NCBI GenBank assembly: GCA_036752825.1
Contig: DAIORV010000001.1
Span: forward strand, 42,843-106,842
DNA length: 64,000 nucleotides
DNA from: Chloroflexota bacterium
GTDB lineage: Bacteria > Chloroflexota > UBA5177
Direction of reading: 5' to 3'
In this document: positions 4,930-62,410 of the stretch, one piece after another
How positions within the stretch are numbered: the first letter of the stretch is position 1
Layout: the number at the start of each line of letters is the position of its first letter
Position numbers and translations under genes: made by a program
Notes under the pieces: model-generated
Told to the model about the DNA's origin: nothing
What the model saw: only the letters and a program-made list of their open reading frames with translations
Databases searched by the model: none

Positions 4930-7900
4930 ATGGTGACGCCCTTGCCAGGTAGCTTCGTACATCTGCACGCCCATTCGTCCTACTCTCTGTTGGACGGGCT
5001 CGCGCGGATCGACGACATGCTGCAGACGGCAAAAGACGCTGGAATGCCTGCTCTCGCGCTGACCGACCATGGCGCTATGTTCGGAGCTATTGAGTTCTAC
5101 GGCAAGGCGAGAGAGCTTGGTATAAAGCCGATCATTGGGTGCGAGGTGTACGTCTCAGGGGAGCCCCTCGACGACAAGCCGGGGCCCCAATCGAAGACTT
5201 TTCATCTCGTTCTCCTCGCCGAGAACGAGATCGGGTACCGCAACCTGATTCAGCTCACCACGGCAGCTCATCTTCGCGGCTTCTACCGCAAGCCGCGAGT
5301 CGATCATGCGCTGCTCGAGAAGCATAATGAAGGATTGATTTGTCTTTCAGGTTGTGCCAGCGGAGAGCTCGCTCGAACGATCCTGGAGGGCAATTTGCGC
5401 GTTGCCGAACAACTGGCCGACTGGCATCGCCAGGTCTTTCCAGGTCGCTACTACCTCGAGCTGCAGTATCACGACCTCGAAGTGCAGACAACGATCAATC
5501 AAGGCGTCATCCACTTGAGCCGTAGCCTCGATCTGCCCCTGGTCGCGACCAACGACGTGCACTACGTTCGCAGCAGCCAGGCGAAAGCCCACGAGGTGCT
5601 GCTGTGCGTCCAGACTCAGACGACGATGGCGGATCCGAAGCGCATGCGGATGGAGACGCCGGAGTTTTACCTAAAGACCGCCGACCAGATGGCATCGCTC
5701 TTTGCTGACTATCCGGCTGCCTTGACGAACACTCTTGAGATTGCCGAGCGATGCAACCTGGCACTCGATTTCGGCCGTCCGCAGCTGCCTCATTTCCCGG
5801 CCCCGAAAGGACGAACCTCCGATGAGCATCTCCGTGCTCTCTGCGAGGAAGGCCTGGTTCTCCGCTACCCTTCGGCAGACGATGACGTGCGAAGCCGGCT
5901 AGATTACGAGCTCTCCGTCATCACGAGTACCGGCTTCGTTGACTATTTTCTGCTCGTCCACGACGTCATCCATTTCGCGCGCACTCACGGTATCCCAGTA
6001 GGGCCGGGGCGCGGCAGCGCCGCGGGCAGCATCGTAGCGTACTGCCTCTTCATTACCAGTGTGGATCCAATTCGCCACGGTCTTTCCTTTGAGCGCTTTC
6101 TCAACCCGGATCGGGTGTCTATGCCTGACATGGATCTGGATTTTGCGGATGACCGCAGGGACGAGCTGATTCGCTACGTGACGGCCAAATACGGCAGAGA
6201 TCGAGTCGCCCAGATCATCACCTTCGGGACAATGGGCGTGAAGGCGGGTGTTCGCGACGTAGGCCGGGCGCTCGGCATGTCGTACGCCGATGTCGATCGA
6301 GTCGCCAAGCTGATTCCCCCAACCTGCTCGACCGTTGAGAAGGCGAAGGAAGAAGCGCCTGACCTGCAGATGTTGTACGAGGATGACCCTAACATCACCA
6401 AGTTGATGGATACTGTGCAGGACCTTGAAGGGGTGGCCAGGCACGCGTCGACTCACGCTGCGGGTGTGCTCATATCTCGTGATCCCCTTTCGCAGCACGT
6501 CCCGCTGTACAAGGTGCCCAAGAGCGAGCAGATTTCGTCGCAATACGCCATGGGCGCCATCGAAAAAATCGGCCTGCTCAAGCTCGATTTTCTTGGCCTG
6601 CGAACGCTGACCATTCTTCAGCGTGCCTGCAACTTCGTAAAAGCCACGACCGGACAAGATATTGATCTCGAGGCAATCTCGCTCGAGGATCCTTCCATTT
6701 ATCAGCTTCTAAACACCGGCGAGACCTTCGGAGTGTTTCAGGTCGATAAGGGCATGCGGAACCATATCAAGAACCTGCATCCGGAAGAGTTCAACCACAT
6801 CGTGGCTCTCATCTCCCTATATAGACCGGGCCCGATGCAGTACATCGAGCGCTTCTGCGATCGGAAAAACGGAAGGCTGCCGGTCGAATACAAGCACCCG
6901 GATCTCGAGGAGGCTCTGCGAGAGACCTACGGCATAGTCGTGTACCAGGAACAGGTCATGAAGATGTTGAACCTCCTGGCCGGCTACTCGCCGGGTGAGG
7001 CCGATCTGGTCCGCCGAGCCATGGCCAAGAAGAAAGCAGATCAACTGGCCCTCGAGAAGGAGCGCTTCCTCGAGCGCACGGTGGCCCGTGGACTCAGCGA
7101 GCAGCTCGCAGGGGAGCTGTTCTCCGACATCGAGCCGTTTGCGGGCTACGCCTTTCCCAAAGCGCATGCGGCAGCGTACGCCGTGCTTACCTGCCAGACC
7201 GCCTACATGAAGGCTAATTATCCACGGGAATACATGTGCGGGCTGCTCTCGGCGGAGAAAGAGAACGCGGAAAAGGTTTCCGAGGCAATGGCGGAGTGCC
7301 GGCACATGGGCATAGCCGTCCTGCCGCCGGACGTGAATGCTAGCCAACTCGACTTTACGATCCAGGATGGAAAGATCCGTTTTGGACTGTGCGCTGTGAA
7401 GAATGTCGGAGCAGCGGCGGTCGAGTCCATCGTCGAAACTCGACGCGTGGGCGGAGCTTTCGCGAATCTGGAGGACTTGTGCTCTCGTCTGGACTGGACA
7501 ATCGTGAGTAAGCGGGTCATCGAGAGCCTCGCGAAATGTGGTGCTCTAGACTCGTTCGGGCTCGAACGAGGCCGCCTTGTTGCCGGAGTCGACCGGATAG
7601 TGGGTGTCGGGACGCAAATGCAACGCGCCGCAGCAGCGGGTCAGGCCTCACTCTTCGGGGATGTGGCTGACTCCCCAACGACCTTGCAGCTCCCGATGGT
7701 TGCGGCGCCGGCGACTCTCGAAGAAAAGATCATGTGGGAAGAGGAGCTGATCGGAATCGCGGTGACTCAACATCCGTTCGTCGACGCCATCGAGGGCCTC
7801 CGCGACTTCCAAGTTCTCCCACCGGTCGAAATTTCAGACGAGCGTGACGGAGAGAAGCTTCTCGTCGGAGGCATCATGAAAAGCCTTCGCTCCTTCCCAA

Positions 7901-8469
7901 CCAAGGACGGAAGGATGATGGCGCGCTTTCAGCTTTCCGATCTGCAAGCATCGCTCGACGCCGTGGTCTTCAACCGAAGTTACGGTCAGGTGCGAGTCCG
8001 TCTCATCGAAGGCAGCGTCGTGGTTGCTTCGGGAACTATCAGTGCGTCCGACGGTCGTCTGCAGATCCTCGTAGATGCTTTACATACCCCCGAGGAAGTG
8101 GTTTCGCTTCCCGTTCCCTCCAACGGAAACGGACGACGTAATGGCCACTCGAACGGCCGTTCCGGACCAAGCTCCGGCGAGTCGAAGGAGAGCTCGGTGG
8201 CGTCTGACGAGCCGCGCAGGATACGAATTCGGGTTCTGAGAAGTGAAGATCGAGCGGCCGATCTCGATCGGCTTGAGGCCGTATACGCGGCGTTGCAGCG
8301 TCGCCACGGAACGGATGAGGTGGAGATCGTAGTCGAAATCGCCGGATCCGATTTGAAGCTTCAACTTCCCAACCGTTATACGTGCTTCAGCCCCGAGCTC
8401 GTGGCCGACCTTTCGGCGGTCGTGCAGATCTCGGAGCTCAGCGTCGACGGCGCCCCAGTCGGACGTTAG
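4930..8469 (+). CDS. dnaE: DNA polymerase III alpha subunit (replicative DnaE1)
   Basis: N-terminal PHP motif 'FVHLHAHSSYSLLDG'. 1179 aa. Contains a palm/fingers segment (LRTLTILQ..) and the catalytic motif GVFQVDKG. Confidence 0.9.
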   Translation: MVTPLPGSFVHLHAHSSYSLLDGLARIDDMLQTAKDAGMPALALTDHGAMFGAIEFYGKARELGIKPIIGCEVYVSGEPLDDKPGPQSKTFHLVLLAENEIGYRNLIQLTTAAHLRGFYRKPRVDHALLEKHNEGLICLSGCASGELARTILEGNLRVAEQLADWHRQVFPGRYYLELQYHDLEVQTTINQGVIHLSRSLDLPLVATNDVHYVRSSQAKAHEVLLCVQTQTTMADPKRMRMETPEFYLKTADQMASLFADYPAALTNTLEIAERCNLALDFGRPQLPHFPAPKGRTSDEHLRALCEEGLVLRYPSADDDVRSRLDYELSVITSTGFVDYFLLVHDVIHFARTHGIPVGPGRGSAAGSIVAYCLFITSVDPIRHGLSFERFLNPDRVSMPDMDLDFADDRRDELIRYVTAKYGRDRVAQIITFGTMGVKAGVRDVGRALGMSYADVDRVAKLIPPTCSTVEKAKEEAPDLQMLYEDDPNITKLMDTVQDLEGVARHASTHAAGVLISRDPLSQHVPLYKVPKSEQISSQYAMGAIEKIGLLKLDFLGLRTLTILQRACNFVKATTGQDIDLEAISLEDPSIYQLLNTGETFGVFQVDKGMRNHIKNLHPEEFNHIVALISLYRPGPMQYIERFCDRKNGRLPVEYKHPDLEEALRETYGIVVYQEQVMKMLNLLAGYSPGEADLVRRAMAKKKADQLALEKERFLERTVARGLSEQLAGELFSDIEPFAGYAFPKAHAAAYAVLTCQTAYMKANYPREYMCGLLSAEKENAEKVSEAMAECRHMGIAVLPPDVNASQLDFTIQDGKIRFGLCAVKNVGAAAVESIVETRRVGGAFANLEDLCSRLDWTIVSKRVIESLAKCGALDSFGLERGRLVAGVDRIVGVGTQMQRAAAAGQASLFGDVADSPTTLQLPMVAAPATLEEKIMWEEELIGIAVTQHPFVDAIEGLRDFQVLPPVEISDERDGEKLLVGGIMKSLRSFPTKDGRMMARFQLSDLQASLDAVVFNRSYGQVRVRLIEGSVVVASGTISASDGRLQILVDALHTPEEVVSLPVPSNGNGRRNGHSNGRSGPSSGESKESSVASDEPRRIRIRVLRSEDRAADLDRLEAVYAALQRRHGTDEVEIVVEIAGSDLKLQLPNRYTCFSPELVADLSAVVQISELSVDGAPVGR

Positions 8470-12687: not shown

Positions 12688-14076
12688 ATGGGCGACAGCC
12701 GATATCGGGCGTTGCCGTCCCTCGACTGCCTACTCAGGCTGAAGCCGAGCAAAGAGCTGCTGCACCGATATCGTCGAGAGGCAGTGGTGCATCTACTGCG
12801 CGGTGAGCTGGAGGCTGCTCGCGAGCGAATCGCCTCGGGCGAGATGGCGCCCGCGCCAGACTCAATCGCCGCTGCCGCCGCCGCCCGTGCGCAGGAGGAC
12901 TGGGAATCCGGCCCCAAGCGGCTGATCAACGCGACTGGGGTGATTCTCCACACTGCCGCCGGCCGAGCTCCCCTCAGCGTTAAAGCGATTGCCGCCATGG
13001 AAGAAGCCGCGGCTTATTCAAACCTGGAAATGGACTTGAAGACCGGAGCCCGCAGTTCGAGACAGGACCACGTAAGGCAGAAATTAGTCGCCCTAACTGG
13101 GGCCGAGTCGGCGCATGTGACGGTGAATGCTGCCTCGGCAGTTCTATTGGCTCTGGCGGCTCTCGCGCGAGGCCGGGAAGTTCTCATATCTCGAGGCCAA
13201 CTGGTTGAGATCGGGGGAGGTTTTCGCGTTCCAGTAATCCTGCGCCAGAGCGGAGCGCGGCTTGTGGAGGTGGGCACGACCAACCGCACAAGAGTTGCGG
13301 ACTATGAAGCAGCCATCAGCCCGCGAACGGGTGCAATTCTCCACGTTCACGCCAGCAACTTTCGCATCAGCGGGTTCACCGAGAATGTGAGGCTCGAGGC
13401 GCTCGCGGAACTTGCACGGCGTCACAACCTGCATCTGATCTCCGATAACGGCAGCGGAGCCCTTTTAGACACTGCATCGTTTGGTCTCACGCACGAGCCC
13501 ATGGTCCAAGAGGCGGTTGCCGCCGGTTGCGATCTCGTGGCGTTCTCGGGTGACAAGCTTCTGGGGGGCCCTCAGTCCGGGCTCCTCGTGGGCAAGCGCA
13601 CAGCCATAGAGGCTCTGGCACGTCATCCACTGGCGAGGGCACTGAGGCCGGATAAGATCATGCTCGCAGGCCTTTCGGCAACGTTAGCCGCGTACCTCCG
13701 GAATGAGTCCTCGTCTACCATACCCGTCTGGAATATGATTTCCACACGCGGCGAGCAGCTGGCACTGCGGGCCGCGGAGTGGCGGAAAAGAGCTCTTGAG
13801 CGCCAGCTTGAAGTGGGTCTTCTGGACGGGGAATCGACCGTCGGCGGCGGCTCCCTGCCAGACGAAGCGATGCCGACCACCCTTATCCGGCTGCCCAAGG
13901 AGATCACGGCAAATGCCCTGAGGAGCGGGGACGTTTCGGTGCTCGCGCGCACTAAGGGCAACCGGACTCTGCTCGATCTGAGAACCGTGCCGGCGCACCA
14001 AGAAGATGAGCTTCTCAACGCGGTAAACGCGGCCAAATTGCGGCAAGCCACCGTGATAGACTCGGCTGCCTCATGA
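12688..14076 (+). CDS. selA: L-seryl-tRNA(Sec) selenium transferase (selenocysteine synthase)
   Basis: N-terminus 'LPSLDCLL', 'HVHASNFRISGFTE', and a PLP-lysine block 'FSGDKLLGGPQSGLLVGK' matching the SelA signature. 462 aa. Confidence 0.8.
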   Translation: MGDSRYRALPSLDCLLRLKPSKELLHRYRREAVVHLLRGELEAARERIASGEMAPAPDSIAAAAAARAQEDWESGPKRLINATGVILHTAAGRAPLSVKAIAAMEEAAAYSNLEMDLKTGARSSRQDHVRQKLVALTGAESAHVTVNAASAVLLALAALARGREVLISRGQLVEIGGGFRVPVILRQSGARLVEVGTTNRTRVADYEAAISPRTGAILHVHASNFRISGFTENVRLEALAELARRHNLHLISDNGSGALLDTASFGLTHEPMVQEAVAAGCDLVAFSGDKLLGGPQSGLLVGKRTAIEALARHPLARALRPDKIMLAGLSATLAAYLRNESSSTIPVWNMISTRGEQLALRAAEWRKRALERQLEVGLLDGESTVGGGSLPDEAMPTTLIRLPKEITANALRSGDVSVLARTKGNRTLLDLRTVPAHQEDELLNAVNAAKLRQATVIDSAAS

Positions 14077-16597: not shown

Positions 16598-16671
16598 TGC
16601 GGGATCGTCTAACGGTAGGACGCTTGACTCTGGATCAAGAAGTTGGGGTTCGAATCCCTGTCCCGCAGCCA
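16598..16671 (+). tRNA. tRNA-Gln (anticodon CUG)
   Basis: Hand-folded cloverleaf. Acceptor TGCGGGA/TCCCGCA with the U1-A72 pair typical of bacterial tRNA-Gln. D-arm GTCTAACGGTAGGAC. Anticodon stem CTTGA/TCAAG with loop CT-CTG-GA. T-arm TGGGGTTCGAATCCCTG. Discriminator G and an encoded CCA. Confidence 0.85.
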
Positions 16672-31257: not shown

Positions 31258-32817
31258 GTGATTCTCTTTCTGCGTATCGTCCCCGGCCTCTCGGTTGCTC
31301 TGCTGGAACGAGATCGACCCGAGCTTCGATCTCGGCCTCTGGTCATTGGGCAATCTGGTGGACGCGGGTTAGTGCTCGAAGCAAATACCTCCGCCCAAGG
31401 CTTTGGTATTCAACCCGGAATAACGCTCGCTCAGGCTCGTCATCACTGTCCTGATGCACTCGTTCTTATGATCGATTTCGCCCGCTGCTCCGCCGTCTGG
31501 GAGGAGATATGCGTCGTACTTCGCAGCTTCACTCCCCTCGTCCAGCCGCTCGAGCCAGGATCGGCCGTCTGCGACTTTTCCGGCTGCGAGCGGCATTGGG
31601 GAGATGCATGGAGCACTGCGCGCAGCGTCGCCGGTGCAATTTTCGGAGATACCGGAATCAAGCCGTGGATCGGCATCGGTGCTAATCGTCTGGTTGCCGA
31701 GCTTGCCTCTGTTGTGGCCGATACCGATACCGATGGCATAGCAGTGGTTGAGCAGGGAGAAGAGCAGGCCTTCCTGGCGGATCTTCCGCTTACCTCGCTA
31801 CCCGAGGTCGACTCAAACCTAACGCTCACCTTCCAGGTATTGGGACTTGCCACCGCTGGCCAGTTTGCTGCCCTGCCCACCTCATCCGTGAAGAATCGCT
31901 TCGGCGCATTGGGGGAGCGGCTCCATCGCTATGCCCGAGGGATAGATTTTCGCCCTATCGTTCCACCACCCCTCAGCCCGGCTATTAGCGCCCGCTACGA
32001 ATGTGAAGAAGGAACTCCGGAGGAGGCTCTCGACGGCCTTCGAAAGCTCGCTCTTCGAGTGTCTTCCGAGCTTCAACAAAAGAGGCTCGAAGGGAAGGTC
32101 ATTACGGTGCGGTTGTTCTGGGCTCATGCCTCAAATGGAATGACCCTGCTACCGAAAAATGGAGCTCGATCTCTCCCTGGCCGAGTCCCACCACTTCTTT
32201 CGAACGGTGATGAGAATGATCGACCTCCTCAAACCGAGCCTCCCCCTCCACCTGGAGACGCGCTGCTTTCGAGCGGGATTAAAGCCAATATCCCTATCCC
32301 CTACCGTATTCACTCCTATGCTCTTCCTCAACCAAACATTGACATGGGAAAACCACTTTTGACCAAACAAACCCATTCCCCCTCGTCTCGAGATGAAAAT
32401 GCTCTTTCGACCAAACAAACCCATTTCCAACCAGGCACTTTGACCGCCATGGTCCGGACGCCTATCAGTGCCGAAGCTCCATTGGCTGAGCGGGCGCAGC
32501 GACTTCTCCTTGGGCGGTTCGCGAAACGAAAGGATGAGCGGTCTCTTCGACTGGAGGCACTCGAGCTGGAGGTCTCTGAGTTCGCTCAGCCTGAACAGAT
32601 CAGCTTTGCTGAGCTGAATCGGATTAGTGACACCGGCGGGCTCGCTGGTATGAGTCCCGAGCGGCGGAGTGCGCTACTCCATGGAGATGAAACCTGGGCT
32701 GCTCGGTACGGGCACACTGCCTTCCGTCATGTGGCATCAATTGATCCGACCAATGTGGTGACGGAACGGCGAGTGCGTTGGGCTGAAGGTTTGAAGATGG
32801 CTCGGGGACGAGTATGA
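31258..32817 (+). CDS. imuB: ImuB: catalytically inactive Y-family polymerase-like protein of the SOS mutasome
   Basis: DinB-like N-terminal fold, but the catalytic acidic residues are replaced ('FLRIVPGLSVALLE' in place of DxD; 'VCDFSG' in place of the catalytic DE). Long Pro-rich C-terminal extension. GTG start 7 nt after GGAGG. Sits directly upstream of dnaE2 and downstream of the LexA box. Confidence 0.8.
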   Translation: MILFLRIVPGLSVALLERDRPELRSRPLVIGQSGGRGLVLEANTSAQGFGIQPGITLAQARHHCPDALVLMIDFARCSAVWEEICVVLRSFTPLVQPLEPGSAVCDFSGCERHWGDAWSTARSVAGAIFGDTGIKPWIGIGANRLVAELASVVADTDTDGIAVVEQGEEQAFLADLPLTSLPEVDSNLTLTFQVLGLATAGQFAALPTSSVKNRFGALGERLHRYARGIDFRPIVPPPLSPAISARYECEEGTPEEALDGLRKLALRVSSELQQKRLEGKVITVRLFWAHASNGMTLLPKNGARSLPGRVPPLLSNGDENDRPPQTEPPPPPGDALLSSGIKANIPIPYRIHSYALPQPNIDMGKPLLTKQTHSPSSRDENALSTKQTHFQPGTLTAMVRTPISAEAPLAERAQRLLLGRFAKRKDERSLRLEALELEVSEFAQPEQISFAELNRISDTGGLAGMSPERRSALLHGDETWAARYGHTAFRHVASIDPTNVVTERRVRWAEGLKMARGRV

Positions 32818-33053
32818 CAAAGCTGTACTTCGAGCCGATCACCGTGAAGTGTGAAGATGGCCGTCCACGTTCCTTCATATGGCGAAGAACGCTTCATCCC
32901 ATCAGTAGTGTCCTTAAACGTTGGATTGTTTGTGTTGACTGGTGGCGGCAGGAGATTTCCCGCCAGTACTACAAAGTCGAGTGCGAAAACCTGGGCGTCT
33001 ACGAGATCTATCGAGAACACGATAGGTGGTTTCTCGAGCGGCTCTATGACTGA
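32814..33053 (+). CDS. 79-aa Trp/Tyr-rich hypothetical protein encoded between imuB and dnaE2
   Basis: Its ATG overlaps the imuB stop (ATGA, 32814-32817). Its TGA overlaps the dnaE2 ATG (TGATG, 33051-33055). Translation: MTKLYFEPITVKCEDGRPRSFIWRRTLHPISSVLKRWIVCVDWWRQEISRQYYKVECENLGVYEIYREHDRWFLERLYD. Confidence 0.6.
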   Translation: MTKLYFEPITVKCEDGRPRSFIWRRTLHPISSVLKRWIVCVDWWRQEISRQYYKVECENLGVYEIYREHDRWFLERLYD

Positions 33054-36000
33054 TGATCCATCTCCACACACACAGCAACTTCAGCTTCCTGGACGGAGCT
33101 TCGGCGCCTGATCGTCTGGTAAAGCGGGCCGCCGAGCTGGAAATGCCGGCCCTCGCCTTGACTGACCATCACGGACTTTACGGTGCCGTACGCTTTCTTC
33201 ACGCGGCAAAAGCTGCAGGCATAAAACCCATCATCGGTGCCGAGATCTGCCTGCGTTCGGAGAATGGAGAAGGCCAGGCAAAGCCACATCTGGTGCTCCT
33301 CGCTAGAAATAGGGTGGGCTATGCAAATCTCTGCCGCATCATCACCAAGGCGCAGCTCGACTATCAGGATGATCCTCAGATCACCCTCACCGATCTTGCT
33401 CCGTATCACGAAGGCCTTATTGCGCTCTCTGGTTGCCGGCGAGGTGAGCTTCCGCGTGCCCTCTTAGCCGGCCATAGAGAGGAGGCGCTGTCAATCGCAC
33501 GGCGCTATGCGGACCTCTTTGGTGACCGCTTCTTGATTGAGCTCGAGCATCACCTTCTCCCCGACGATGACGCGCTGGTTGATGCGCTGCTCGACCTAGC
33601 AAGGAAGATCGGCCTACGTGCCGTCCTCGCTAACGATGTTCACTATGCCTACCCGCACGAATACCGTCTGCGTGACGTCATGGCTTGTATTCAGACACGA
33701 ACCACGCTCGATGAATGGACTGATATCCGTCATGCCAACGGCGAGTACTACCTGAAGTCCCAGCAGGAGATGCGCGAAGCTTTTGCTCTCCCCGCAAACA
33801 TCTTCGATGCCTGTCTTGCCACCACCCAAGAGATCGCCGACGATTGCAATCTTGAGCTGCTGGCCGTTTCCTGCCGTCCGCCGGACTATCCCGTACCTAA
33901 AGGTGAAACTGCTTTCTCACACCTCTACACCCTCTGTCAGGAAGGAGTGCGCAAGCTCTATCACCCGCTCACACCAGAAGTTAGCAATCAGCTCGCTTAC
34001 GAGCTTTCCATCATCGAGCAGATGGGGCTCGCCTCCTTCTTTCTCTGCGTCTGGGACATCATTCGCTTCTCCCGGGAACACGGCATACGATGCGCCGGAC
34101 GGGGTTCGGCCGCCGATTCAATCGTGGCCTATATTCTCGGCATCACCGCGGTCGATCCCCTGGCCAACAATCTGCTTTTCGAGCGCTTCCTCAATCCCGG
34201 ACGTGTCGGCATGCCGGATGTGGACATCGACTTCGACTCACGGCGGCGCGACGAGGTCATCGAGTACATACAGGATCGCTACACCACTGAGCACGCCGCC
34301 ATGGTGGCGAACGTCATCACCTATCGTTCTCGCTCTGCCTTCCGAGACGTGGCCAAGGCGATGGGCTTCGCTCCCTCGCTGGTCGATACTCTCGCCTCGA
34401 AGCTCAGCTATCGAGGTGTCAAAGAGATGCGTGAAGAGATGGTTTTGGCAGGTGATGTACAGCCGGCACTCGAGGGAGCCGTCGACGAGAACGCGTCGAA
34501 AGCTCAGACGCCGCTCGAGCAGGTGATCGAGCTCTGCGAGCAGCTCGACGGCTATCCTCGCCATCTCTCACTTCATAACGGTGGCATGCTCATTACTGCC
34601 GAGCCACTGATAGATGTGGTCCCGCTCGAATACGCTACCAGTGGCGTCCGCGTCTGTCAGTTCAACAAAGATGATGTCGAGATGCTCGGCCTGATCAAGT
34701 TCGACATCCTCGGTCTGCGAACCCTTTCCATCCTTGACGAAGCCGTGCAAACCATTAAAGAGGTGCGCGGAATCGATCTTCCGATCGACAACATTCCGCT
34801 CGACGATCCTGCCTGTTACGACCTGGCATGCTCGTCCAAGACCATCGGCGTCTTTCAGATCGAGAGCCCGGGCCAATGGGCGCTTCTCGCTCGCGCTCAA
34901 CCTCGCACGTTCGGCGATCTCATCATTCAGATTGCTCTCTTCCGGCCCGGTCCGTTACAGGGAGGGATGGTCGATCCATACATCGAAAGGCGTCTAGGCC
35001 GGGAGGCGGTCACATACTCCCATCCCAGCCTCGAGAACTGCTTGCGAGACACACTTGGTGTGGTGATCTTCCAGGAACAAGTGCTGCAGGTTGCGCATGA
35101 CTTTGCAGGCCTTTCCTACGCTGATGCCGACGGCCTGCGCCGCGCCATGTCCCACTACCGTACCGACACCGAGATGAATGTCTGCCGCGACATCTTCGTG
35201 GCAAGCGCAGTCGAGCTCGGGCGCGACCGGGAGCTCTCGGAACGCATGTACGAAGCCATTTCGTACTTCTCCGGTTACGGCTTCTGCCGGTCGCATGCCG
35301 CTGCCTTCGCCAAGACCGTCTACCAGACCCTTTTCCTCAAGGTCTATTACCCCGCAGAGTTCCTGGCCGCTATCCTCTCCAACGAGCCCTGCTGCTATTA
35401 CCCGACGCAAACCGTCATTGAAGAGGCAAGACGGTGGGGAATACGAGTTCTTCCCGTTGACATAAATAGAAGTACCGCTCGCTATACCGTCGAACACGGC
35501 GCGATTCGTATGGGAATCATGCAGGTAAAGGGACTCACCGAGGACTCAGCACTGGCGGTCGTCGAGGCGCGTGGGAAACGCCCATTCGCTACCTTCTCTG
35601 ACTTCTGGGCACGTACTTCGGTGGATCGTGATGTCGCTGAGGCCCTGATAAGTGTTGGTGCTTTTGACTCTTTGGGGATGAATCGGAGAGCGTTGCTCTG
35701 GGGACTGGAGGAAGTGATCCGTACCGTCGTTCGTAAGCGTGATCTGCAGTCCCGAATGAAGATCGATGTGCGGGCGGGCGCGCCAGATCTTCCGCCTCTT
35801 ACCGATCTCGATGTCGCTGGACTTGATTACACACTGCAAGGTGCGTCCGCTCGTTACAGCGTCATGTCCTTCTATCGCCGATCGCTGGCTCGGGCCAACG
35901 TCCTTTCGATAGGACAGATCGAAGGTAAACCGTCAGGCACCACGGTTCGCACTGGGGGCATCGTCATCAGCCGCCAGAGGCCACCCACTGCCAAAGGCAT

Positions 36001-36268
36001 GACCTTTCTCGTCCTGGCCGACGAGGAAGGAGAGCTCCCGGTGGCCATCTACCCCAATATCTACGAGAGCCATCGCCTCATTGTGAACGGCAGCTCATCC
36101 CTGGTCATCGAGGGGATAGTCGAGCGAGAGCGTTACGTCACGTCTCTCCTGGCCACACGCCTCTGGCGTCTCAACGATGTCGCCACACTCGATACCCGTC
36201 CTTCCATCCAGCGCGCCAAGCAGGCCAAGCTCTTCGACTCGGTCGCCACCAAGTACATACCGGGATGA
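33053..36268 (+). CDS. dnaE2: Error-prone DNA polymerase DnaE2 (ImuC)
   Basis: Second PolIII-alpha paralogue (1071 aa), with PHP motif 'MIHLHTHSNFSFLDG' and 'GVFQIESPG'. The shorter length and the LexA-box/imuB context mark it as DnaE2. Confidence 0.85.
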   Translation: MIHLHTHSNFSFLDGASAPDRLVKRAAELEMPALALTDHHGLYGAVRFLHAAKAAGIKPIIGAEICLRSENGEGQAKPHLVLLARNRVGYANLCRIITKAQLDYQDDPQITLTDLAPYHEGLIALSGCRRGELPRALLAGHREEALSIARRYADLFGDRFLIELEHHLLPDDDALVDALLDLARKIGLRAVLANDVHYAYPHEYRLRDVMACIQTRTTLDEWTDIRHANGEYYLKSQQEMREAFALPANIFDACLATTQEIADDCNLELLAVSCRPPDYPVPKGETAFSHLYTLCQEGVRKLYHPLTPEVSNQLAYELSIIEQMGLASFFLCVWDIIRFSREHGIRCAGRGSAADSIVAYILGITAVDPLANNLLFERFLNPGRVGMPDVDIDFDSRRRDEVIEYIQDRYTTEHAAMVANVITYRSRSAFRDVAKAMGFAPSLVDTLASKLSYRGVKEMREEMVLAGDVQPALEGAVDENASKAQTPLEQVIELCEQLDGYPRHLSLHNGGMLITAEPLIDVVPLEYATSGVRVCQFNKDDVEMLGLIKFDILGLRTLSILDEAVQTIKEVRGIDLPIDNIPLDDPACYDLACSSKTIGVFQIESPGQWALLARAQPRTFGDLIIQIALFRPGPLQGGMVDPYIERRLGREAVTYSHPSLENCLRDTLGVVIFQEQVLQVAHDFAGLSYADADGLRRAMSHYRTDTEMNVCRDIFVASAVELGRDRELSERMYEAISYFSGYGFCRSHAAAFAKTVYQTLFLKVYYPAEFLAAILSNEPCCYYPTQTVIEEARRWGIRVLPVDINRSTARYTVEHGAIRMGIMQVKGLTEDSALAVVEARGKRPFATFSDFWARTSVDRDVAEALISVGAFDSLGMNRRALLWGLEEVIRTVVRKRDLQSRMKIDVRAGAPDLPPLTDLDVAGLDYTLQGASARYSVMSFYRRSLARANVLSIGQIEGKPSGTTVRTGGIVISRQRPPTAKGMTFLVLADEEGELPVAIYPNIYESHRLIVNGSSSLVIEGIVERERYVTSLLATRLWRLNDVATLDTRPSIQRAKQAKLFDSVATKYIPG

Positions 36269-51303: not shown

Positions 51304-51387
51304 CATGACCACCCTCTCAAAAGGTGGCAGGCGGAGTCCGGACCTCATGTCTCCTGGTTGGCTTCGCCGGCCGATAGGACGCGCTTG

Positions 51388-53121
51388 ATGACTTCTCTGC
51401 ACGGCGAGAGATACGATCGCGGAGACGCTGAAGACTCCACGGCGGTTGACCCTGCCAATCCTCAGGCGGAGGGAACATGTGTTTACCTCGGCAAGGCTGA
51501 TGCAGAACAAGTTCAACCGGAGGCGATGCAGCAGCTTTTCCAGCGACTGACTACTCTGCGTCATCCAAACGTTGCACGCGTCCGAGAGTTGTCTCTGGAG
51601 GACGATGCGCTGACGCTGGTTGTCGATCCCGTGCATGGTATGCCCCTGTCTGAGTACGTGGCGACACGAGAACCCGGTATCGCTGAAGTGAGGAAGCTGT
51701 CCATCCAACTTGTCTCCGCCCTCGCATACCTGCAGAAGCATCTGCCCGGATTGCGACTCCGACTTGAGCATGTTCTCGTCGGAGACGGAAGCTTGGTTCT
51801 CACCGGGGCGAATCTTGTCCAGCTCAAAGGGGTCTCGTGGCCCAGGGACTTTCCGTCCTCGATCGCCTTTGCGATTGAGGCGCCGGAGCCTGAAGAGAAA
51901 CGTGACGAGACGGCAACGGTATTCACCGCCGGCGCAGTCACGTACCACATGCTCACAAGGGTGGCGGCGGGATCTGCACGCGACGCTTGGGGTGCCGCCG
52001 CGATAGCATTCGAGCATTTCGTTCGGGAGCGCGTCCCCCCGAGCGACCTGGTTCGAAACATACCCAAGCAATGGGATGAGGCGGTCCTCCGAGCTCTTTC
52101 GGTAAACCCAGGCGATCGATTCCCGACGTTGGAAGCGCTCCAGCAAGCATTGGCAGAGCTCGAGGCTTTGGACTACGAAGATGAAGAGGCGGCTGTGGCA
52201 ACAAGCTCGCCACTACCGGCTCCTCTGCCTCTGGACCTTCCGTTTCCTTACTATTTAGAGCCAGACAATGAAGCCTCGGGAAGCCGCTGGCTGATTCCCG
52301 GGATGACCGTGATGGGTCTTGCCCTGGCGGCAGCCGTCTTCGTAGCGGCTTGGTTCGTAGTCGGCGGACACACGAAGACCTTGAAGCCAGCGCAGCTCGC
52401 CGCGGTCTCAGGTCTGCGCCTTGTAGAATCTGCACCGGTCTCCGGTTCAGACGTCATTCTCGCGTGGTCACCGGTAGTTGGTGCCGACCGCTATCGAGTG
52501 CGAATAACGGCTTCCTCGGACGGTAAGACGTCCACGTTCGCCACTTCTCGACCCCGATACGCCTTTCGAAATGCGGCAGGCCAGCAGTCATTCGTATGGA
52601 TGGCGTCTGCCCACACCTCCAATGGCTGGACTCCCTTTTCGCCAGCAAGAACCTTCATCGTACGCGCTCCTAGAGTCGGCGTTCCGGCGCTGATTCGACC
52701 GACAGACAAGCAAATCTCCCATACCAAGAACGTGACCTTTTGCTGGCTTGCCGTGACGGACGCGCGCGGCTACCTTCTGCGGGCCGGCACTCTCACAGTT
52801 CATACGCTCAATAGGTGTCACCTAATGACCTTGGGATACGGCAAGTACGCCTGGACCGTCACCGCGCAGGTGCAGGGCACTCGTCTCTATACGGGACCGA
52901 CCGCTCCGCCGCGCGTCATCGATATTGTGCCGGCTCGAGGACGAGCCACGGCAGCTCCGACCGCGACAACGTTTCCCGCGGCTACGGCCGTCGCGCCCGG
53001 ACCGCCAGTCGTCAGTCAACCTCCTCCGGTTCCCACTGCAGTCGTTGCCGCCCCTGTCGCGCCCGCTCCAGTCAATCCAGCCCCGACTGCGCCCGCGTGT
53101 GTCCCATTCGTCAATTGTTAG
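51388..53121 (+). CDS. Membrane protein with a degenerate Ser/Thr-kinase-like (pseudokinase) cytoplasmic domain, one TM helix, extracellular Ig/Fn3-like repeats and a Pro-rich tail
   Basis: Kinase-like blocks 'LRHPNVARVRELSLEDDALTLVVDPVHGMPLSEYV' and 'LRLEHVLVGDGSLVL', with no HRD or DFG Asp and no Gly loop. TM helix 'MTVMGLALAAAVFVAAWFVVGG'. Two ~90-aa beta-rich repeats. ATG 51388 follows AGGA; TTG 51358 is the alternative. Confidence 0.6.
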   Translation: MTSLHGERYDRGDAEDSTAVDPANPQAEGTCVYLGKADAEQVQPEAMQQLFQRLTTLRHPNVARVRELSLEDDALTLVVDPVHGMPLSEYVATREPGIAEVRKLSIQLVSALAYLQKHLPGLRLRLEHVLVGDGSLVLTGANLVQLKGVSWPRDFPSSIAFAIEAPEPEEKRDETATVFTAGAVTYHMLTRVAAGSARDAWGAAAIAFEHFVRERVPPSDLVRNIPKQWDEAVLRALSVNPGDRFPTLEALQQALAELEALDYEDEEAAVATSSPLPAPLPLDLPFPYYLEPDNEASGSRWLIPGMTVMGLALAAAVFVAAWFVVGGHTKTLKPAQLAAVSGLRLVESAPVSGSDVILAWSPVVGADRYRVRITASSDGKTSTFATSRPRYAFRNAAGQQSFVWMASAHTSNGWTPFSPARTFIVRAPRVGVPALIRPTDKQISHTKNVTFCWLAVTDARGYLLRAGTLTVHTLNRCHLMTLGYGKYAWTVTAQVQGTRLYTGPTAPPRVIDIVPARGRATAAPTATTFPAATAVAPGPPVVSQPPPVPTAVVAAPVAPAPVNPAPTAPACVPFVNC

Positions 53122-53195
53122 CCGAGATTCACGCACCGCCCTGCGACGTTTGGGCGAGGCCGCGTCAGATCGAACAGAGACAGCGCTAGATGGCG

Positions 53196-53224
53196 TTGAC
53201 GATCACCTTGTCGGGCACTATACT
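53196..53224 (+). promoter_or_regulatory. Candidate mraZ promoter (TTGACG-17 nt-TATACT)
   Basis: -35 at 53196-53201 and -10 at 53219-53224. The predicted leader contains two GATTTAG direct repeats (53249-53255 and 53266-53272). Confidence 0.45.
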
Positions 53225-53274
53225 GTGCCTGCCCCACCCGTTCACATCGATTTAGAGTTTGAGAGATTTAGCAC

Positions 53275-53727
53275 GTGTTCTTCGGTGAATACGAACGGAC
53301 GGTGGACTACAAGGGACGCCTGACGATCCCAGCCCACCTACTGGAGCCTACCGACAGCGCCGACTGGTCGCGCGTGATGGTAGTAAAGGGTGATGCGAGC
53401 TGTCTGTACGTCTACGATGTCAAGACGTGGAAGGTAGTCCTCGACGAAGCCTACAAGAGCATGGATGACGACGAAAGCCGTCTTTTCATGCACAGAGCCT
53501 TGCAGGATGCTCAGCTTTCGGATGTCGACAACCTGAAGCGCATCTCCGTTCCAATGTCTCTTCTCTCTCATGCAGCCATAGAAAAGCGCACCACGATAGT
53601 GGGAATGTTCAACCGGCTTGAGTTGTGGGATCCGGAACGCTGGCAAGGGTACCTGGACACCATGGAAGAGGTCCCGGTTCCGTCCATTGCGGACCTCTCT
53701 CGCGCCAGAATTCGTGAGGTTTCATAA
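53275..53727 (+). CDS. mraZ: Transcriptional regulator MraZ (tandem MraZ/SpoVT-AbrB domains)
   Basis: 'MFFGEYERTVDYKGRLTIPAHL' and a second repeat '...VDNLKRISVPMSLLSHAAI'. GTG start. No rsmH, ftsL or ftsI follows. Confidence 0.85.
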   Translation: MFFGEYERTVDYKGRLTIPAHLLEPTDSADWSRVMVVKGDASCLYVYDVKTWKVVLDEAYKSMDDDESRLFMHRALQDAQLSDVDNLKRISVPMSLLSHAAIEKRTTIVGMFNRLELWDPERWQGYLDTMEEVPVPSIADLSRARIREVS

Positions 53728-53772
53728 GCGAGGCAGTATCACCGAAAGCCTAATTCGTCTATACTGGAAGAG

Positions 53773-53807
53773 CGCGGGATTGCCGTCCCCGCGCTTTCTT
53801 TGTCTTT
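53773..53807 (+). terminator. Rho-independent terminator after mraZ
   Basis: GCGCGGG-(attgccgt)-CCCGCGC followed by TTTCTTTGTCTTT. Confidence 0.6.
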
Positions 53808-53825
53808 AACTCCAGCAAGAACACA

Positions 53826-56800
53826 ATGACACTAACTGTACTTACGTCCGTGCTCTCTCGCCTCAAAGAGATCGAGAAATTGAGGGGCGTGTCAACCTTC
53901 ACAGTCGTCTCAGGACTGCTTGGCGCGGCCCGACCGGCGGTCGCAGCGGCGCTGATCGATCGGCGCCAGGTGCTCGTCGTCACCGCGCACTCTCAGGCGG
54001 CTCTCGACTTTGCCCAAGAGCTTCATCGCTGGACAGAGGAGACAGTCGGACTCTTCCCGGCCACCGAAGCACTTCCATACGAGCGGGTACGCGTGGACCG
54101 ATCAGTCCTCGCGGCGCGCGAGAGCGTCGTGCACGACCTGGGCACGGGAGTCTGTCGCGTTGTTGTCGCTCCCGTCAGAGCCCTGATGCAACCAGTCGAG
54201 GGTCGAAACCCGCTGGAGCTATCCGTCTCAAGAGTCCGGGCCGGCTCGTCGACTCGGCCCGAGGAGCTCCTGCGGCAATGGGTATCGATGGGGTACGTGG
54301 AAACACGGGTGGTCGACGAACCAGGCTCCTTTGCTCGGCGCGGAGGAGTTCTGGACATCTTTCCGGCGGGCCGAGACTTGCCGGTGCGCATAGATCTCTT
54401 TGGAAACGACGTCGAATCTCTCCGCGAATTCGATCCGGCGTCACAGCGATCTCTCGTCACGGTCGCCGAGGTCGAGATCCTGCCGCTCGCTCAGCTACAA
54501 GACGATATCCGCACGTCTGTCCGGTCGGAGCTTCAGGGTATCGACGCGTCCAGATTGACGGCTGAGGCGGAGACGCGGTGGCAGCAAGACGTGGCTGCGC
54601 TTGAGCATGCCTCAGGTCTCGACGAGCTAGCCATCTTCTCCCCCTACCTGCTGGCTGAGCCTTGTAGCTTCGTCGATCATTTCGCAGCCGATGCCCTCGT
54701 GCTGGTCGACGATGCTCCGGAAACCTGGTCGACGCTTGCGTCCTTGCAGATCCAAGCCGAGGATGTGCAGCGAGGTATGGAGGAAGCGGGCACGTTGCCG
54801 ATAGGCCTAAAAGCCGCAGTAATCGCTGCAGACTCGGTCAAGTTAAGCGTCGAATCTCGACACCTGATCAGCATCACGCCCGGAACGACATCTCAAGACG
54901 CCGTTGACCTATCAGGACTGTTCACTCCCGCGCGGCTCTACGCCGGCAGAGTTCGCGACTTTGTCCGGGCTTCCGCGCAAGGCGCCCGGGTAAGAACTGT
55001 TGTTGGAACGCAGCAGGTGGAGCGAGTTCGTGAGCTGCTCACGGAGGAGGGGATAGCTGTCGGCGTCTCCGGTCCAAATGCAAATGAGCTAGCACTCGGC
55101 GTAACGCTCGTCTCGAGCAGCTCGGTCCAGGGTTGGACTCTACCTCGCGAAGAAATTGCTTTTCTGACCGACCACGAAATCTTCGGCCGCTCCCTGACTC
55201 GACCCGTTCCCAGGAAAAAGCGGCAGGCGCGCGAGGCCTTTTTCTTCGATTACTCCCCGGGTGACTTTGTCGTGCATCTCGAACACGGAATTGGAAGCTT
55301 CGAAGGCGTTACCCGCATGTCAGTGGAGGGCGCGGAACGCGAATACGCCATTGTCCAGTACGCGGGCAAAGATCGCGTCTACGTACCCACGGATCAACTG
55401 GAACGACTGACCAAGTACGTCGGAAGCGGAGATGCAGCTCCCCACATCAGCAAGCTGGGAGGCGGGGAGTGGCAGCGCGCGCGCGCTCGGGCGAAGGCCG
55501 CCGCCGACGACATCGCCCGAGAGCTGATCGAGCTCTATGCCAAGCGCCGCACGCGGCCCGCCCATGCCTTCCCCTCCGACCAACCATGGCAGCACGAGCT
55601 GGAGGCGACGTTTTCCTTCGAAGAGACAGCTGATCAGGTGCAGGCCATTCGCGATGTCAAGGCGGACATGGAAGAGCCCCATCCCATGGATCGTTTGGTC
55701 TGCGCCGATGTCGGCTACGGAAAGACGGAGGTCGCCGTACGTGCCGCCTTCAAGGCGGTGATGGATGGCAAGCAGGTGGCTATGCTCGTTCCCACGACCA
55801 TCCTGGCCCAGCAGCACTTTGAGACGTTCGCCGATCGATACGGTCCGTTTCCCGTCTCAGTCGAGGTCTTGAGCCGTTTCCGATCCCCAGCTCAGCAACG
55901 TGAAGTGCTGCGGCGACTGGCGTCAGGGGAGGTCGACATTGTGATCGGTACTCATCGACTTTTGCAGACGGACGTTCTCTTCAAGAATCTCGGGCTTCTG
56001 ATCATCGACGAGGAGCAGCGTTTTGGTGTCAAGCACAAGGAGCAGTTGAAGAGGTTCAGGGAATCCATTGACGTGCTCACGCTCACAGCCACCCCAATCC
56101 CACGGACTCTACACTCTGGGCTCGTAGGCATAAGAGAGATCAGCGTCATCGAGACGCCGCCAGAGGGCCGCCTTCCAATCAGGACGTATTTGCAGCCGTT
56201 CGACGAGCGTCTGATTCGCGAGGCGGTTTTACGGGAGCTCGATAGGGACGGTCAGGTCTATTTCGTCCACAACAAAGTTGCGACCATCGATAGCATGGCT
56301 GAGCGCGTGCGACGCCTCGTCCCCGAAGCCCGGGTTGTTGTGGCTCACGGACAGATGGATGAAGGTTTGCTCGAGGGGGTCATGTTGTCCTTCGCCCACG
56401 GCGAGGCCGACGTTCTACTTTGCAGCACCATCATCGAGAACGGATTGGACATTCCAAACGTAAATACAATCGTCGTCAACAATGCACATCGACTGGGATT
56501 GACTCAGCTTTATCAGCTGCGAGGCCGGGTGGGGCGCAGCGCCAACCAGGCCTACGCGTATCTCCTATATCCGCTGGATTCACACCTCACACAGGATGCT
56601 TCGCGCCGCATGGAGGCGGTGTTCGAAGCGCAGGACCTGGGTGCCGGATTTAGCATCGCCATGAAGGACCTTGAGATTAGGGGAACGGGCAACCTTTTAG
56701 GTGCGGAGCAGAGCGGCCACGCTGCGTCCATTGGCTTTGACCTATATACGAGGATGATTGGGGACGCCGTTGAGCGGATGCGGGGAGTTCCGGTCGAGGA

Positions 56801-57266
56801 ACCCCCCTCCATTTCGATCAATCTTCCGCTGACCATGCTTCTGCCGGAGGAATACGTCGGAAGCGAGTCTGAACGGCTTACCTTGTATCGCCGCCTGGCA
56901 AACGTGGCAACGCTTTCGGAGATCGCGGACCTGGAAGACGAGATGCGGGACAGATTTGGCGCGCTACCGTTGCCGGTGCAGAACCTCATAGCCGTCGTAA
57001 GGCTGAAACTGAAAGCACGGGACGCTAGAATATCGTCCATCACTTTGGATCGTGAGGCTTTGACCGTGCGCTCCCAGCCGGGCGCGATATACGACCGAGT
57101 GTCTCTGTACCGAACCTATGGCACAGATGCCAAAATTTCAAATGCGCTACTACGGATTCCGCGCCGTAGGTTGAAGGAAGACTGGATGAGCGCTATTAGC
57201 GAGATGCTGGATTGCACGCTGGCTCTGCAAGACACTCTTGCCAAACCAGAGCCCGTTCCTGTATGA
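53826..57266 (+). CDS. mfd: Transcription-repair coupling factor Mfd
   Basis: 1146 aa. UvrB-homology N-terminus, RNAP-interaction domain, and a superfamily-2 translocase ('GYGKTEVAVRAAF', 'LIIDEEQRFG', TRG motif 'LRGRVGRS'). Confidence 0.95.
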   Translation: MTLTVLTSVLSRLKEIEKLRGVSTFTVVSGLLGAARPAVAAALIDRRQVLVVTAHSQAALDFAQELHRWTEETVGLFPATEALPYERVRVDRSVLAARESVVHDLGTGVCRVVVAPVRALMQPVEGRNPLELSVSRVRAGSSTRPEELLRQWVSMGYVETRVVDEPGSFARRGGVLDIFPAGRDLPVRIDLFGNDVESLREFDPASQRSLVTVAEVEILPLAQLQDDIRTSVRSELQGIDASRLTAEAETRWQQDVAALEHASGLDELAIFSPYLLAEPCSFVDHFAADALVLVDDAPETWSTLASLQIQAEDVQRGMEEAGTLPIGLKAAVIAADSVKLSVESRHLISITPGTTSQDAVDLSGLFTPARLYAGRVRDFVRASAQGARVRTVVGTQQVERVRELLTEEGIAVGVSGPNANELALGVTLVSSSSVQGWTLPREEIAFLTDHEIFGRSLTRPVPRKKRQAREAFFFDYSPGDFVVHLEHGIGSFEGVTRMSVEGAEREYAIVQYAGKDRVYVPTDQLERLTKYVGSGDAAPHISKLGGGEWQRARARAKAAADDIARELIELYAKRRTRPAHAFPSDQPWQHELEATFSFEETADQVQAIRDVKADMEEPHPMDRLVCADVGYGKTEVAVRAAFKAVMDGKQVAMLVPTTILAQQHFETFADRYGPFPVSVEVLSRFRSPAQQREVLRRLASGEVDIVIGTHRLLQTDVLFKNLGLLIIDEEQRFGVKHKEQLKRFRESIDVLTLTATPIPRTLHSGLVGIREISVIETPPEGRLPIRTYLQPFDERLIREAVLRELDRDGQVYFVHNKVATIDSMAERVRRLVPEARVVVAHGQMDEGLLEGVMLSFAHGEADVLLCSTIIENGLDIPNVNTIVVNNAHRLGLTQLYQLRGRVGRSANQAYAYLLYPLDSHLTQDASRRMEAVFEAQDLGAGFSIAMKDLEIRGTGNLLGAEQSGHAASIGFDLYTRMIGDAVERMRGVPVEEPPSISINLPLTMLLPEEYVGSESERLTLYRRLANVATLSEIADLEDEMRDRFGALPLPVQNLIAVVRLKLKARDARISSITLDREALTVRSQPGAIYDRVSLYRTYGTDAKISNALLRIPRRRLKEDWMSAISEMLDCTLALQDTLAKPEPVPV

Positions 57267-62380: not shown

Positions 62381-62410
62381 TGACCAGCGGCGGCGCGCGC
62401 TGGTCTTTTC
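62381..62410 (+). terminator. Rho-independent terminator after hslU
   Basis: GACCAGCG-(gcggcgcg)-CGCTGGTC followed by TTTTCT. Confidence 0.6.

Follow-up and report, generated by a model that had tools for sequence, protein, structure and literature searches.

How a mraZ gene that stands apart from its usual operon is to be understood is the question raised by a 64-kb stretch of DNA from a Chloroflexota bacterium (contig DAIORV010000001.1; hereafter the window, in which positions are counted from the first nucleotide). MraZ is among the most conserved bacterial regulators, but its physiological role is still unclear, partly because the protein is entangled with its own operon in model organisms. 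At a canonical locus, mraZ is followed by rsmH (mraW), ftsL, ftsI and mur genes, whereas the gene downstream of it here is mfd. An earlier note on this DNA had described the gene as a monocistronic mraZ upstream of mfd and outside the cluster of genes for division and the cell wall (dcw), and that description held: the stand-alone arrangement is conserved in at least 20 loci of the clade, with no adjoining rsmH. The explanation that we favor, with a probability of roughly 60%, is that the locus forms a transcription unit of its own, whose product is an MraZ-family regulator that is uncoupled from rsmH and the dcw cluster and acts in trans. It starts from what is secure, namely the identity of the protein, the anatomy and conservation of the unit, and the absence of both rsmH/dcw genes and an operator array.

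The open reading frame (ORF) at 53275..53727 on the plus strand has a GTG start and a TAA stop and encodes a protein of 150 amino acids (aa). This protein is MraZ, as the earlier note had proposed: the Pfam match, sequence matches to PDB entries and the predicted fold agree, and the DNA-contacting residues are invariant. Pfam family PF02381 was found in two stretches with a score of 92.3 bits, and solved chains of Mycoplasma MraZ in the PDB were aligned with residues 1-134 at an E-value of about 1e-12. The AlphaFold2 model of the protein has a predicted local distance difference test score (pLDDT) of 71, and a Foldseek search with it returned 16 matches at E<=1e-3, all of which were MraZ structures (9qlg, 1n0e, 9r4j and 9sz7; probability 1.0, template modeling score about 0.57). 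In an alignment of 26 clade sequences, D11, K13, R15, D85 and R89, together with the DxxxR motifs, are invariant, and K13, R15 and R89 are also invariant across 20 diverse MraZ proteins. Cryo-electron microscopy of the MraZ-DNA complex of Mycoplasma genitalium demonstrated that Lys13, Arg15 and Arg86 read the GTG(G/T) box (PMC12957436); K13, R15 and R89 are the counterparts of these residues in the window protein. The protein thus resembles canonical MraZ in its two-domain fold, full-length similarity, base-contacting residues, DxxxR motifs and length.

The stand-alone state of mraZ is a conserved one and not an artefact of annotation. At least 161 homologues with 62-100% identity were found, nearly all of exactly 150 aa, and the gene order ftsY-ffh-mraZ-mfd-topA-xerC-hslV-hslU-rpsB-tsf is shared by four relatives (L054, L055, L058 and L059; fetched loci are numbered with the prefix L). 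The downstream neighbor mfd (53826..57266, plus strand), which encodes the transcription-repair coupling factor, was recognized by the Pfam domains TRCF, CarD_TRCF_RID, UvrB_inter, DEAD and Helicase_C, and mfd is also the downstream neighbor in those relatives for which genes were called. Upstream lies an ORF of 587 aa (51358..53121, plus strand) with a Pro/Ala-rich C-terminus and a partial Pkinase match of 19 bits, below the cut-off. Only this lineage has the kinase-like ORF as an insert separating mraZ from ffh; in relatives, ffh lies directly upstream and stops about 80-100 nt before mraZ. One relative carries three genes in the interval from mraZ to mfd, and one of the three runs on the opposite strand. 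With these insertions, on one side in the window and on the other in that relative, mraZ is not tied to either neighbor.

No rsmH was found next to mraZ by either of the approaches used. tblastn with five RsmH queries from control loci (described below) gave no match in the window or in the clade loci, Pfam identified no dcw genes among the large ORFs of the window, and the 4-10 kb around mraZ contain no rsmH or other dcw gene in any of the relatives. An ftsK gene is present in the window, 27 kb from mraZ and on the other strand. Neither the window nor any fetched locus contains a second mraZ. Queried with the RsmH of L018, a protein search ended up in another lineage (Limnocylindria / 'Eisenbacteria'); when the query was L015 MraZ, the nearest outgroup, it ended up in Zixibacteria.

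The mraZ gene is preceded by a promoter of its own. A promoter scanner identified the -35 hexamer TTGACG at 53196..53201 and, after a spacer of 17 nt, the -10 hexamer TATACT at 53219..53224, both on the plus strand; with 10 of 12 consensus matches this is the best sigma-70-like site within 20 kb. The promoter, which the earlier note had pointed out, is borne out as a sequence feature by its conservation in relatives: all six bases of the -10 hexamer are invariant in 15 loci, TTG of the -35 hexamer is likewise invariant, TTGAC is present in 13 of 15 relatives, and the 17-nt spacing is kept in the loci scanned. The scanner likewise reports TTGAC-17-TATACT in L059, L057 and L001, and TATACT is shared with three loci of a sister group (L060, L061 and L063). 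The transcript is predicted to start at the G at 53231 on the plus strand, the seventh base past the -10 hexamer, a position occupied by a purine in 16 of 16 loci examined.

What the promoter lacks is the canonical MraZ operator, which we defined as at least three direct GTG(G/T) boxes at 10-bp spacing (about 6 nt between boxes) in the promoter or leader on the coding strand. As controls we used 39 distant MraZ loci from the same metagenome scan, all of them, save for one short fragment, at 28-36% identity. The rsmH gene comes after mraZ in 27 of these loci, directly or past a gene for a STAS-domain protein. A regular expression for three boxes matched 50 times in 165 kb of control DNA, always just upstream of mraZ, and most control loci carry three to five boxes there. 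In contrast, no three-box array was found upstream of mraZ in 21 clade loci, and in 230 kb of clade DNA the three-box pattern occurred once, inside mfd. That single GTG[GT] match, at window position 56089-56114 on the minus strand of the mfd coding sequence, has spacers of 7 nt and was judged to be due to chance. No MraZ box array was found anywhere else in the window, and two-box sites numbered 2 against 5.5 expected. The absence of rsmH and dcw neighbors, together with that of a box array, indicates that this mraZ has lost both its operon and the canonical autoregulatory array; since the promoter lacks GTG(G/T) boxes, classical MraZ autorepression would not operate here.

In place of such an array, the leader has a C-rich box, CCCCACCCGTTC, at 53232..53243 on the plus strand, which would begin at about +2 of the predicted transcript. 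Its core, CCCC[AC][CT]CCG, takes the form CCCCACCCG in the window (53232-53240) and, among 15 clade loci scanned upstream of the gene, is present in 13, always equally far from the -10 hexamer; the other two, L009 and L056, carry one-base variants in place. The box begins 7-9 variable bases past the -10 hexamer in clade loci. Apart from these positions, 223 kb of clade DNA contained the core only three times, each time within coding sequence. The idea that promoters or leaders of the lineage carry it in general was therefore rejected, as outside coding sequences it occurs only at mraZ. Related C-rich forms are found in the sister loci (CCCCCACC in L060, CACCCGTT in L063), so that in two of three of these loci TATACT is followed by a C-rich box despite other neighbor genes.

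At the other end of the unit, a GC-rich hairpin (GCGCGGG/CCCGCGC, a 7-bp stem with a 9-nt loop) lies at 53772..53794 on the plus strand, followed at 53795..53807 by the T-rich tract TTTCTTTGTCTTT. The hairpin is conserved in 17 loci, across which 93% of the stem cells are paired and the seventh pair switches among AU, GC and CG in a compensatory manner. Orthologous hairpins with loops of 4-8 nt, together with their T-rich tracts, were called terminator-like by the scanner in L059, L057 and L001, whereas the window hairpin was missed by this simple scanner because its 9-nt loop exceeds the limit. In clade loci the hairpin is specific to the mraZ-mfd spacer, and its interpretation as a dispersed repeat of the repetitive extragenic palindromic type was rejected for this reason. 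Both the promoter and the hairpin recur in about 20 related Chloroflexota loci. An Rfam search gave no match for the leader or the mraZ-mfd spacer, even at E<=1.

Taken as a mechanism, the favored reading would run as follows. The strong and fully conserved promoter of the sigma-70 type, TTGAC-17-TATACT, would give rise to a transcript with a leader of about 44 nt that opens with the conserved C-rich box; its 150-aa product, predicted to retain the MraZ fold and the base-contacting residues K13, R15 and R89, would be made from a unit that the GC hairpin and U-tract end, the hairpin probably forming the 5' end of the mfd mRNA as well. MraZ expressed from its own promoter would then act in trans on GTGG-type arrays at other genomic sites, most likely at a separated dcw sub-cluster, while its own level would probably be set via the C-rich leader box. 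Split dcw clusters are already known in Chloroflexi (PMC8871954).

Several points weigh against this reading. With TIGR00242, the NCBI equivalog model for 'division/cell wall cluster transcriptional repressor MraZ', the protein reaches 89.4 bits where the cut-off is 98.35, and it falls far under the cut-offs of the remaining five NCBI MraZ models; the score below the TIGR00242 cut-off leaves room for an altered function of MraZ. Neither a target array nor a dcw or rsmH locus of the lineage was retrieved, so that action in trans on dcw is something that we infer. Both the start of transcription and its termination at the hairpin are predictions from the sequence. If mfd transcription begins at a hexamer just upstream of the hairpin, as discussed below, the hairpin would not be a fully efficient terminator, and read-through from mraZ into mfd would be possible. 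The low score has a practical side as well: the subfamily lies under the score that NCBI requires for naming, and some of its annotations read 'hypothetical', as does that of the identical GenBank protein HCF99892.1 from a Chloroflexi metagenome-assembled genome, probably because of that score.

The place of the window protein within the family bears on whether it is the MraZ of its lineage or an additional one. Among 1.84 billion representatives, searched exhaustively with HMMER, 3678 MraZ-like matches were found. The clade accounts for three representatives (E<=1e-30); a small sister group follows with 41-47% identity and lengths of 161-172 aa, and full-length matches beyond it have at most 37% identity. 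A basic C-terminal motif, ..PSIxDLxRxRIRxVS, aligned in the clade and the sister group only, and forms a low-confidence helix in the AlphaFold2 model; this motif and the score under the NCBIfam cut-off set the window protein apart from canonical MraZ. In the three sister loci fetched, the order is glmS-(glnA)-mraZ followed by unknown genes, without rsmH, and the one sister cluster that bears an organism name belongs to Chloroflexota. The window MraZ is thus a member of a distinct, Chloroflexota-specific subfamily that is an orphan in a second context too (glmS-mraZ). Being an orphan in two contexts fits a long-standing relocation and a paralogue alike. As a separate observation, the gene past mraZ in the sister group has its own conserved TTGACA-17-TAAGCT promoter (L060:6504-6700, L061:8486-8670); it encodes 199-206 aa without a Pfam match, and the pair is conserved beside glmS.

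A paralogue, that is, a diverged second MraZ with its own regulon, while a canonical mraZ-rsmH pair and GTGG boxes at dcw exist elsewhere in the genome, is an alternative of some weight, although we consider it distinctly less probable than relocation of the only copy to a unit acting in trans. It would account for a separate subfamily marked by a C-terminal motif of its own and for the gap in identity, from three representatives to 41-47% and then to 37% or less, as well as for the two unrelated contexts (ffh-mraZ-mfd and glmS-mraZ), the score under the equivalog cut-off and the possession of a promoter without canonical boxes. Canonical mraZ-rsmH is also retained in the Limnocylindria-like loci L016 and L018 and in Dehalococcoidia (PMC10608941). 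However, no second mraZ is present in the window or the fetched loci, a canonical copy was never seen alongside this one in that DNA, and the residues that contact DNA are unaltered.

Within the favored reading of a trans-acting regulator with its own promoter, the next matter is how the C-rich box might set the level of MraZ, and here two proposals compete. In the first, the box acts as RNA: the 5' end of the leader would pair with mraZ codons 7-14 (CCGUYC with GRACGG and CCCC with AAGGG), enclosing the Shine-Dalgarno sequence and the start codon, and thereby damp translation or stabilize the mRNA. The candidate partner is codons 7-10, GAACGGACGGTG, at 53293..53304 on the plus strand, to which the 3' half of the box is complementary; support for this long-range pairing is weak. 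The helix appears in the minimum free energy (MFE) folds of most loci and also in the centroid fold, and register 2 gave 88.6% pairing against 15-62% when the partner was slid. Own leader with own coding sequence did better than swapped combinations (P=0.005). At the codon level, R8 is CGG in 13 of 16 loci, whereas R15 uses six codons, and synonymous variation is low at E7-R8-T9; the base following CCG tracks the codon variants in L002, L004, L009, L013 and L057, the GTG at V10 that is unique to the window complements CAC of the C-rich box, and the variable AC or T falls between the two proposed helices. On the other hand, the RNAalifold consensus of the leader is essentially empty (-2.9 kcal/mol, zero compensatory pairs), 49 of 500 shuffles reached the covariation score, pairing with the box is equally good for other 60-nt coding windows (median rank 0.15), the leader of the window has a folding z-score of -0.29, and the register varies among loci, with L011 as a misfit. 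RNA pairing is therefore a tentative proposal, and one that we would rather doubt. A different RNA role, that of an anti-Shine-Dalgarno mimic, was rejected: the box forms at most 4 bp with the Shine-Dalgarno sequence, such pairing is absent from MFE folds, and the variant of the box does not covary with the Shine-Dalgarno sequence.

The second proposal treats the box as DNA, namely as a single inverted MraZ box through which MraZ would still repress its own promoter at the transcription start. The candidate site is CCCCACCC, within the fragment 53190-53275, whose bottom strand reads GTGGGG; no other first box is as common in the control arrays as GTGGGG, the reverse complement of CCCCAC. Its position, +2 to +10, is that of box 1 of canonical promoters, and the transcription start of M. 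genitalium mraZ falls inside box 1 (PMC12957436). The structure of an MraZ octamer on a single box has also been solved (PMC12957436), and the C-rich box travels with the gene to a different genomic context (L060). Against this, about 40% of clade loci carry CCCCCTCCG, which makes the bottom strand GAGGGG and removes the T of GTG, and loci with CCCCCTCCG are interspersed with those of the CCCCAC type across the protein tree. Moreover, there is one box only, it is inverted, and it has no partner at 10-bp spacing. We thus hold autorepression through an inverted box to be unlikely, slightly more so than pairing of the leader RNA. With either of the two, a more far-reaching version of the favored reading can be proposed, in which the subfamily is permanently detached, has given up autorepression through a GTGG array, is controlled by the C-rich 5' element (by pairing or as an inverted box) and has gained a basic C-terminal helix. 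This version is speculative, and we would not lean on it at present. Should MraZ nevertheless be rewired in this way, its targets could reveal a role of MraZ beyond its own operon.

The spacer between mraZ and mfd raises the further possibility that the two genes form one operon and that the hairpin is an attenuator or an element of the mfd 5' untranslated region (UTR). The relevant feature is the hexamer TATACT at 53760..53765 on the plus strand, which is probably the -10 element of an mfd promoter, as judged by its conservation: 17 loci share TAnnnT without exception, and its distance upstream of the hairpin is 6 nt in the window and 3-10 nt across loci. No recognizable -35 hexamer accompanies it, and the scanner does not call the site. 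As a side observation, the hexamer is often preceded by TTCGTC, and in the absence of a sigma-70-type -35 it may be an mfd promoter of an unusual type. The conserved hexamer upstream of the hairpin suggests that the hairpin is probably also within the mfd 5' UTR. The earlier note's clean terminator before mfd accordingly stands in part, with a conserved hairpin and T-tract in evidence; 'clean' calls for a caveat, since the invariant -10-like hexamer just upstream argues for read-through of the hairpin as well.

In favor of a common operon, all clade loci with enough downstream sequence show the start of an mfd-like ORF past the spacer, with mfd confirmed by Pfam or by length in the window, L001, L054, L055, L058 and L059. 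The GCGCGG/CCGCGC core is also unusually invariant for a mere terminator, and is found 3-10 nt past an invariant TAnnnT. By contrast, the two genes are separated in the relative with three intervening genes, mraZ of the sister group has other neighbors, and the GC stem with its T-tract was scored as terminator-like in relatives. We know of no functional link between MraZ and Mfd, which likewise counts against an operon. On balance, a joint mraZ-mfd operon is improbable, and the independent unit remains the better description.

By far the least probable proposal is that of the earlier note that two GATTTAG repeats in the leader (53249..53255 and 53265..53271, plus strand) are autoregulatory sites of MraZ: both copies do sit between the promoter and the start codon, but they were judged to be chance occurrences and rejected as regulatory because the motif is neither enriched (5 observed in the window against 3.8 expected) nor conserved, either copy being absent from all relatives besides the 99%-identical L003, where the second copy is mutated to GATTTGG; the second copy overlaps the position of the GAGG Shine-Dalgarno sequence of relatives, the motif is unlike the GTG(G/T) box, and the copies lie 16 nt apart from start to start, neither the 17 nt reported earlier nor the 10 of an MraZ array.

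Among known systems, the arrangement can be compared with loci whose dcw cluster has likewise undergone break-up or reduction, as in Dehalococcoidia, which belong to the same phylum, and in Mollicutes (mraZ-mraW-ftsA-ftsZ) (PMC10608941, PMC8871954). In those cases mraZ stays with mraW/rsmH, whereas the splitting of this pair in the present clade is an unusual step. Another non-standard neighborhood of mraZ is found in many control loci among L021-L050 (70-75% GC; e.g., L036:4438-4896 and L040:4444-4893), in which a STAS gene of about 150 aa lies between mraZ and rsmH with 4-nt overlaps; unlike the clade studied here, these loci retain upstream a GTGG array of three to five boxes, and rsmH is only one gene further down. 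As the product of a stand-alone gene that would act in trans, the window protein resembles the transition-state regulators of the AbrB/SpoVT type, which are monocistronic and trans-acting, belong to the same DNA-binding superfamily and share its 'cradle-like' motif (PMC12957436). AbrB, however, has one domain per chain and forms tetramers, whereas the window protein is a fused two-domain MraZ with MraZ-specific helices.

With a separate promoter and without an operator array of its own, MraZ of this lineage parts the 'regulator' from the 'target'. The places where GTGG arrays persist in these genomes would mark out the MraZ regulon directly, and would also show whether dcw stays a target once the cluster has been broken up.

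Some other features of the window are recorded here. Two genes for DnaE-type DNA polymerase III alpha subunits were found among 4930-8469, 31258-32817 and 33053-36268; one of them adjoins a gene for a polymerase of the impB/DinB family, an arrangement that resembles an imuB-dnaE2 mutagenesis cassette. The window also carries selA (selenocysteine synthase) at 12688-14076 on the plus strand, and its sole tRNA gene is tRNA-Gln(CTG) at 16598-16671 on the plus strand. Just upstream of rpsB, at 62382-62405 on the plus strand, GACCAGCG...CGCTGGTC, with TTTTC after it, makes up a strong terminator-like hairpin.

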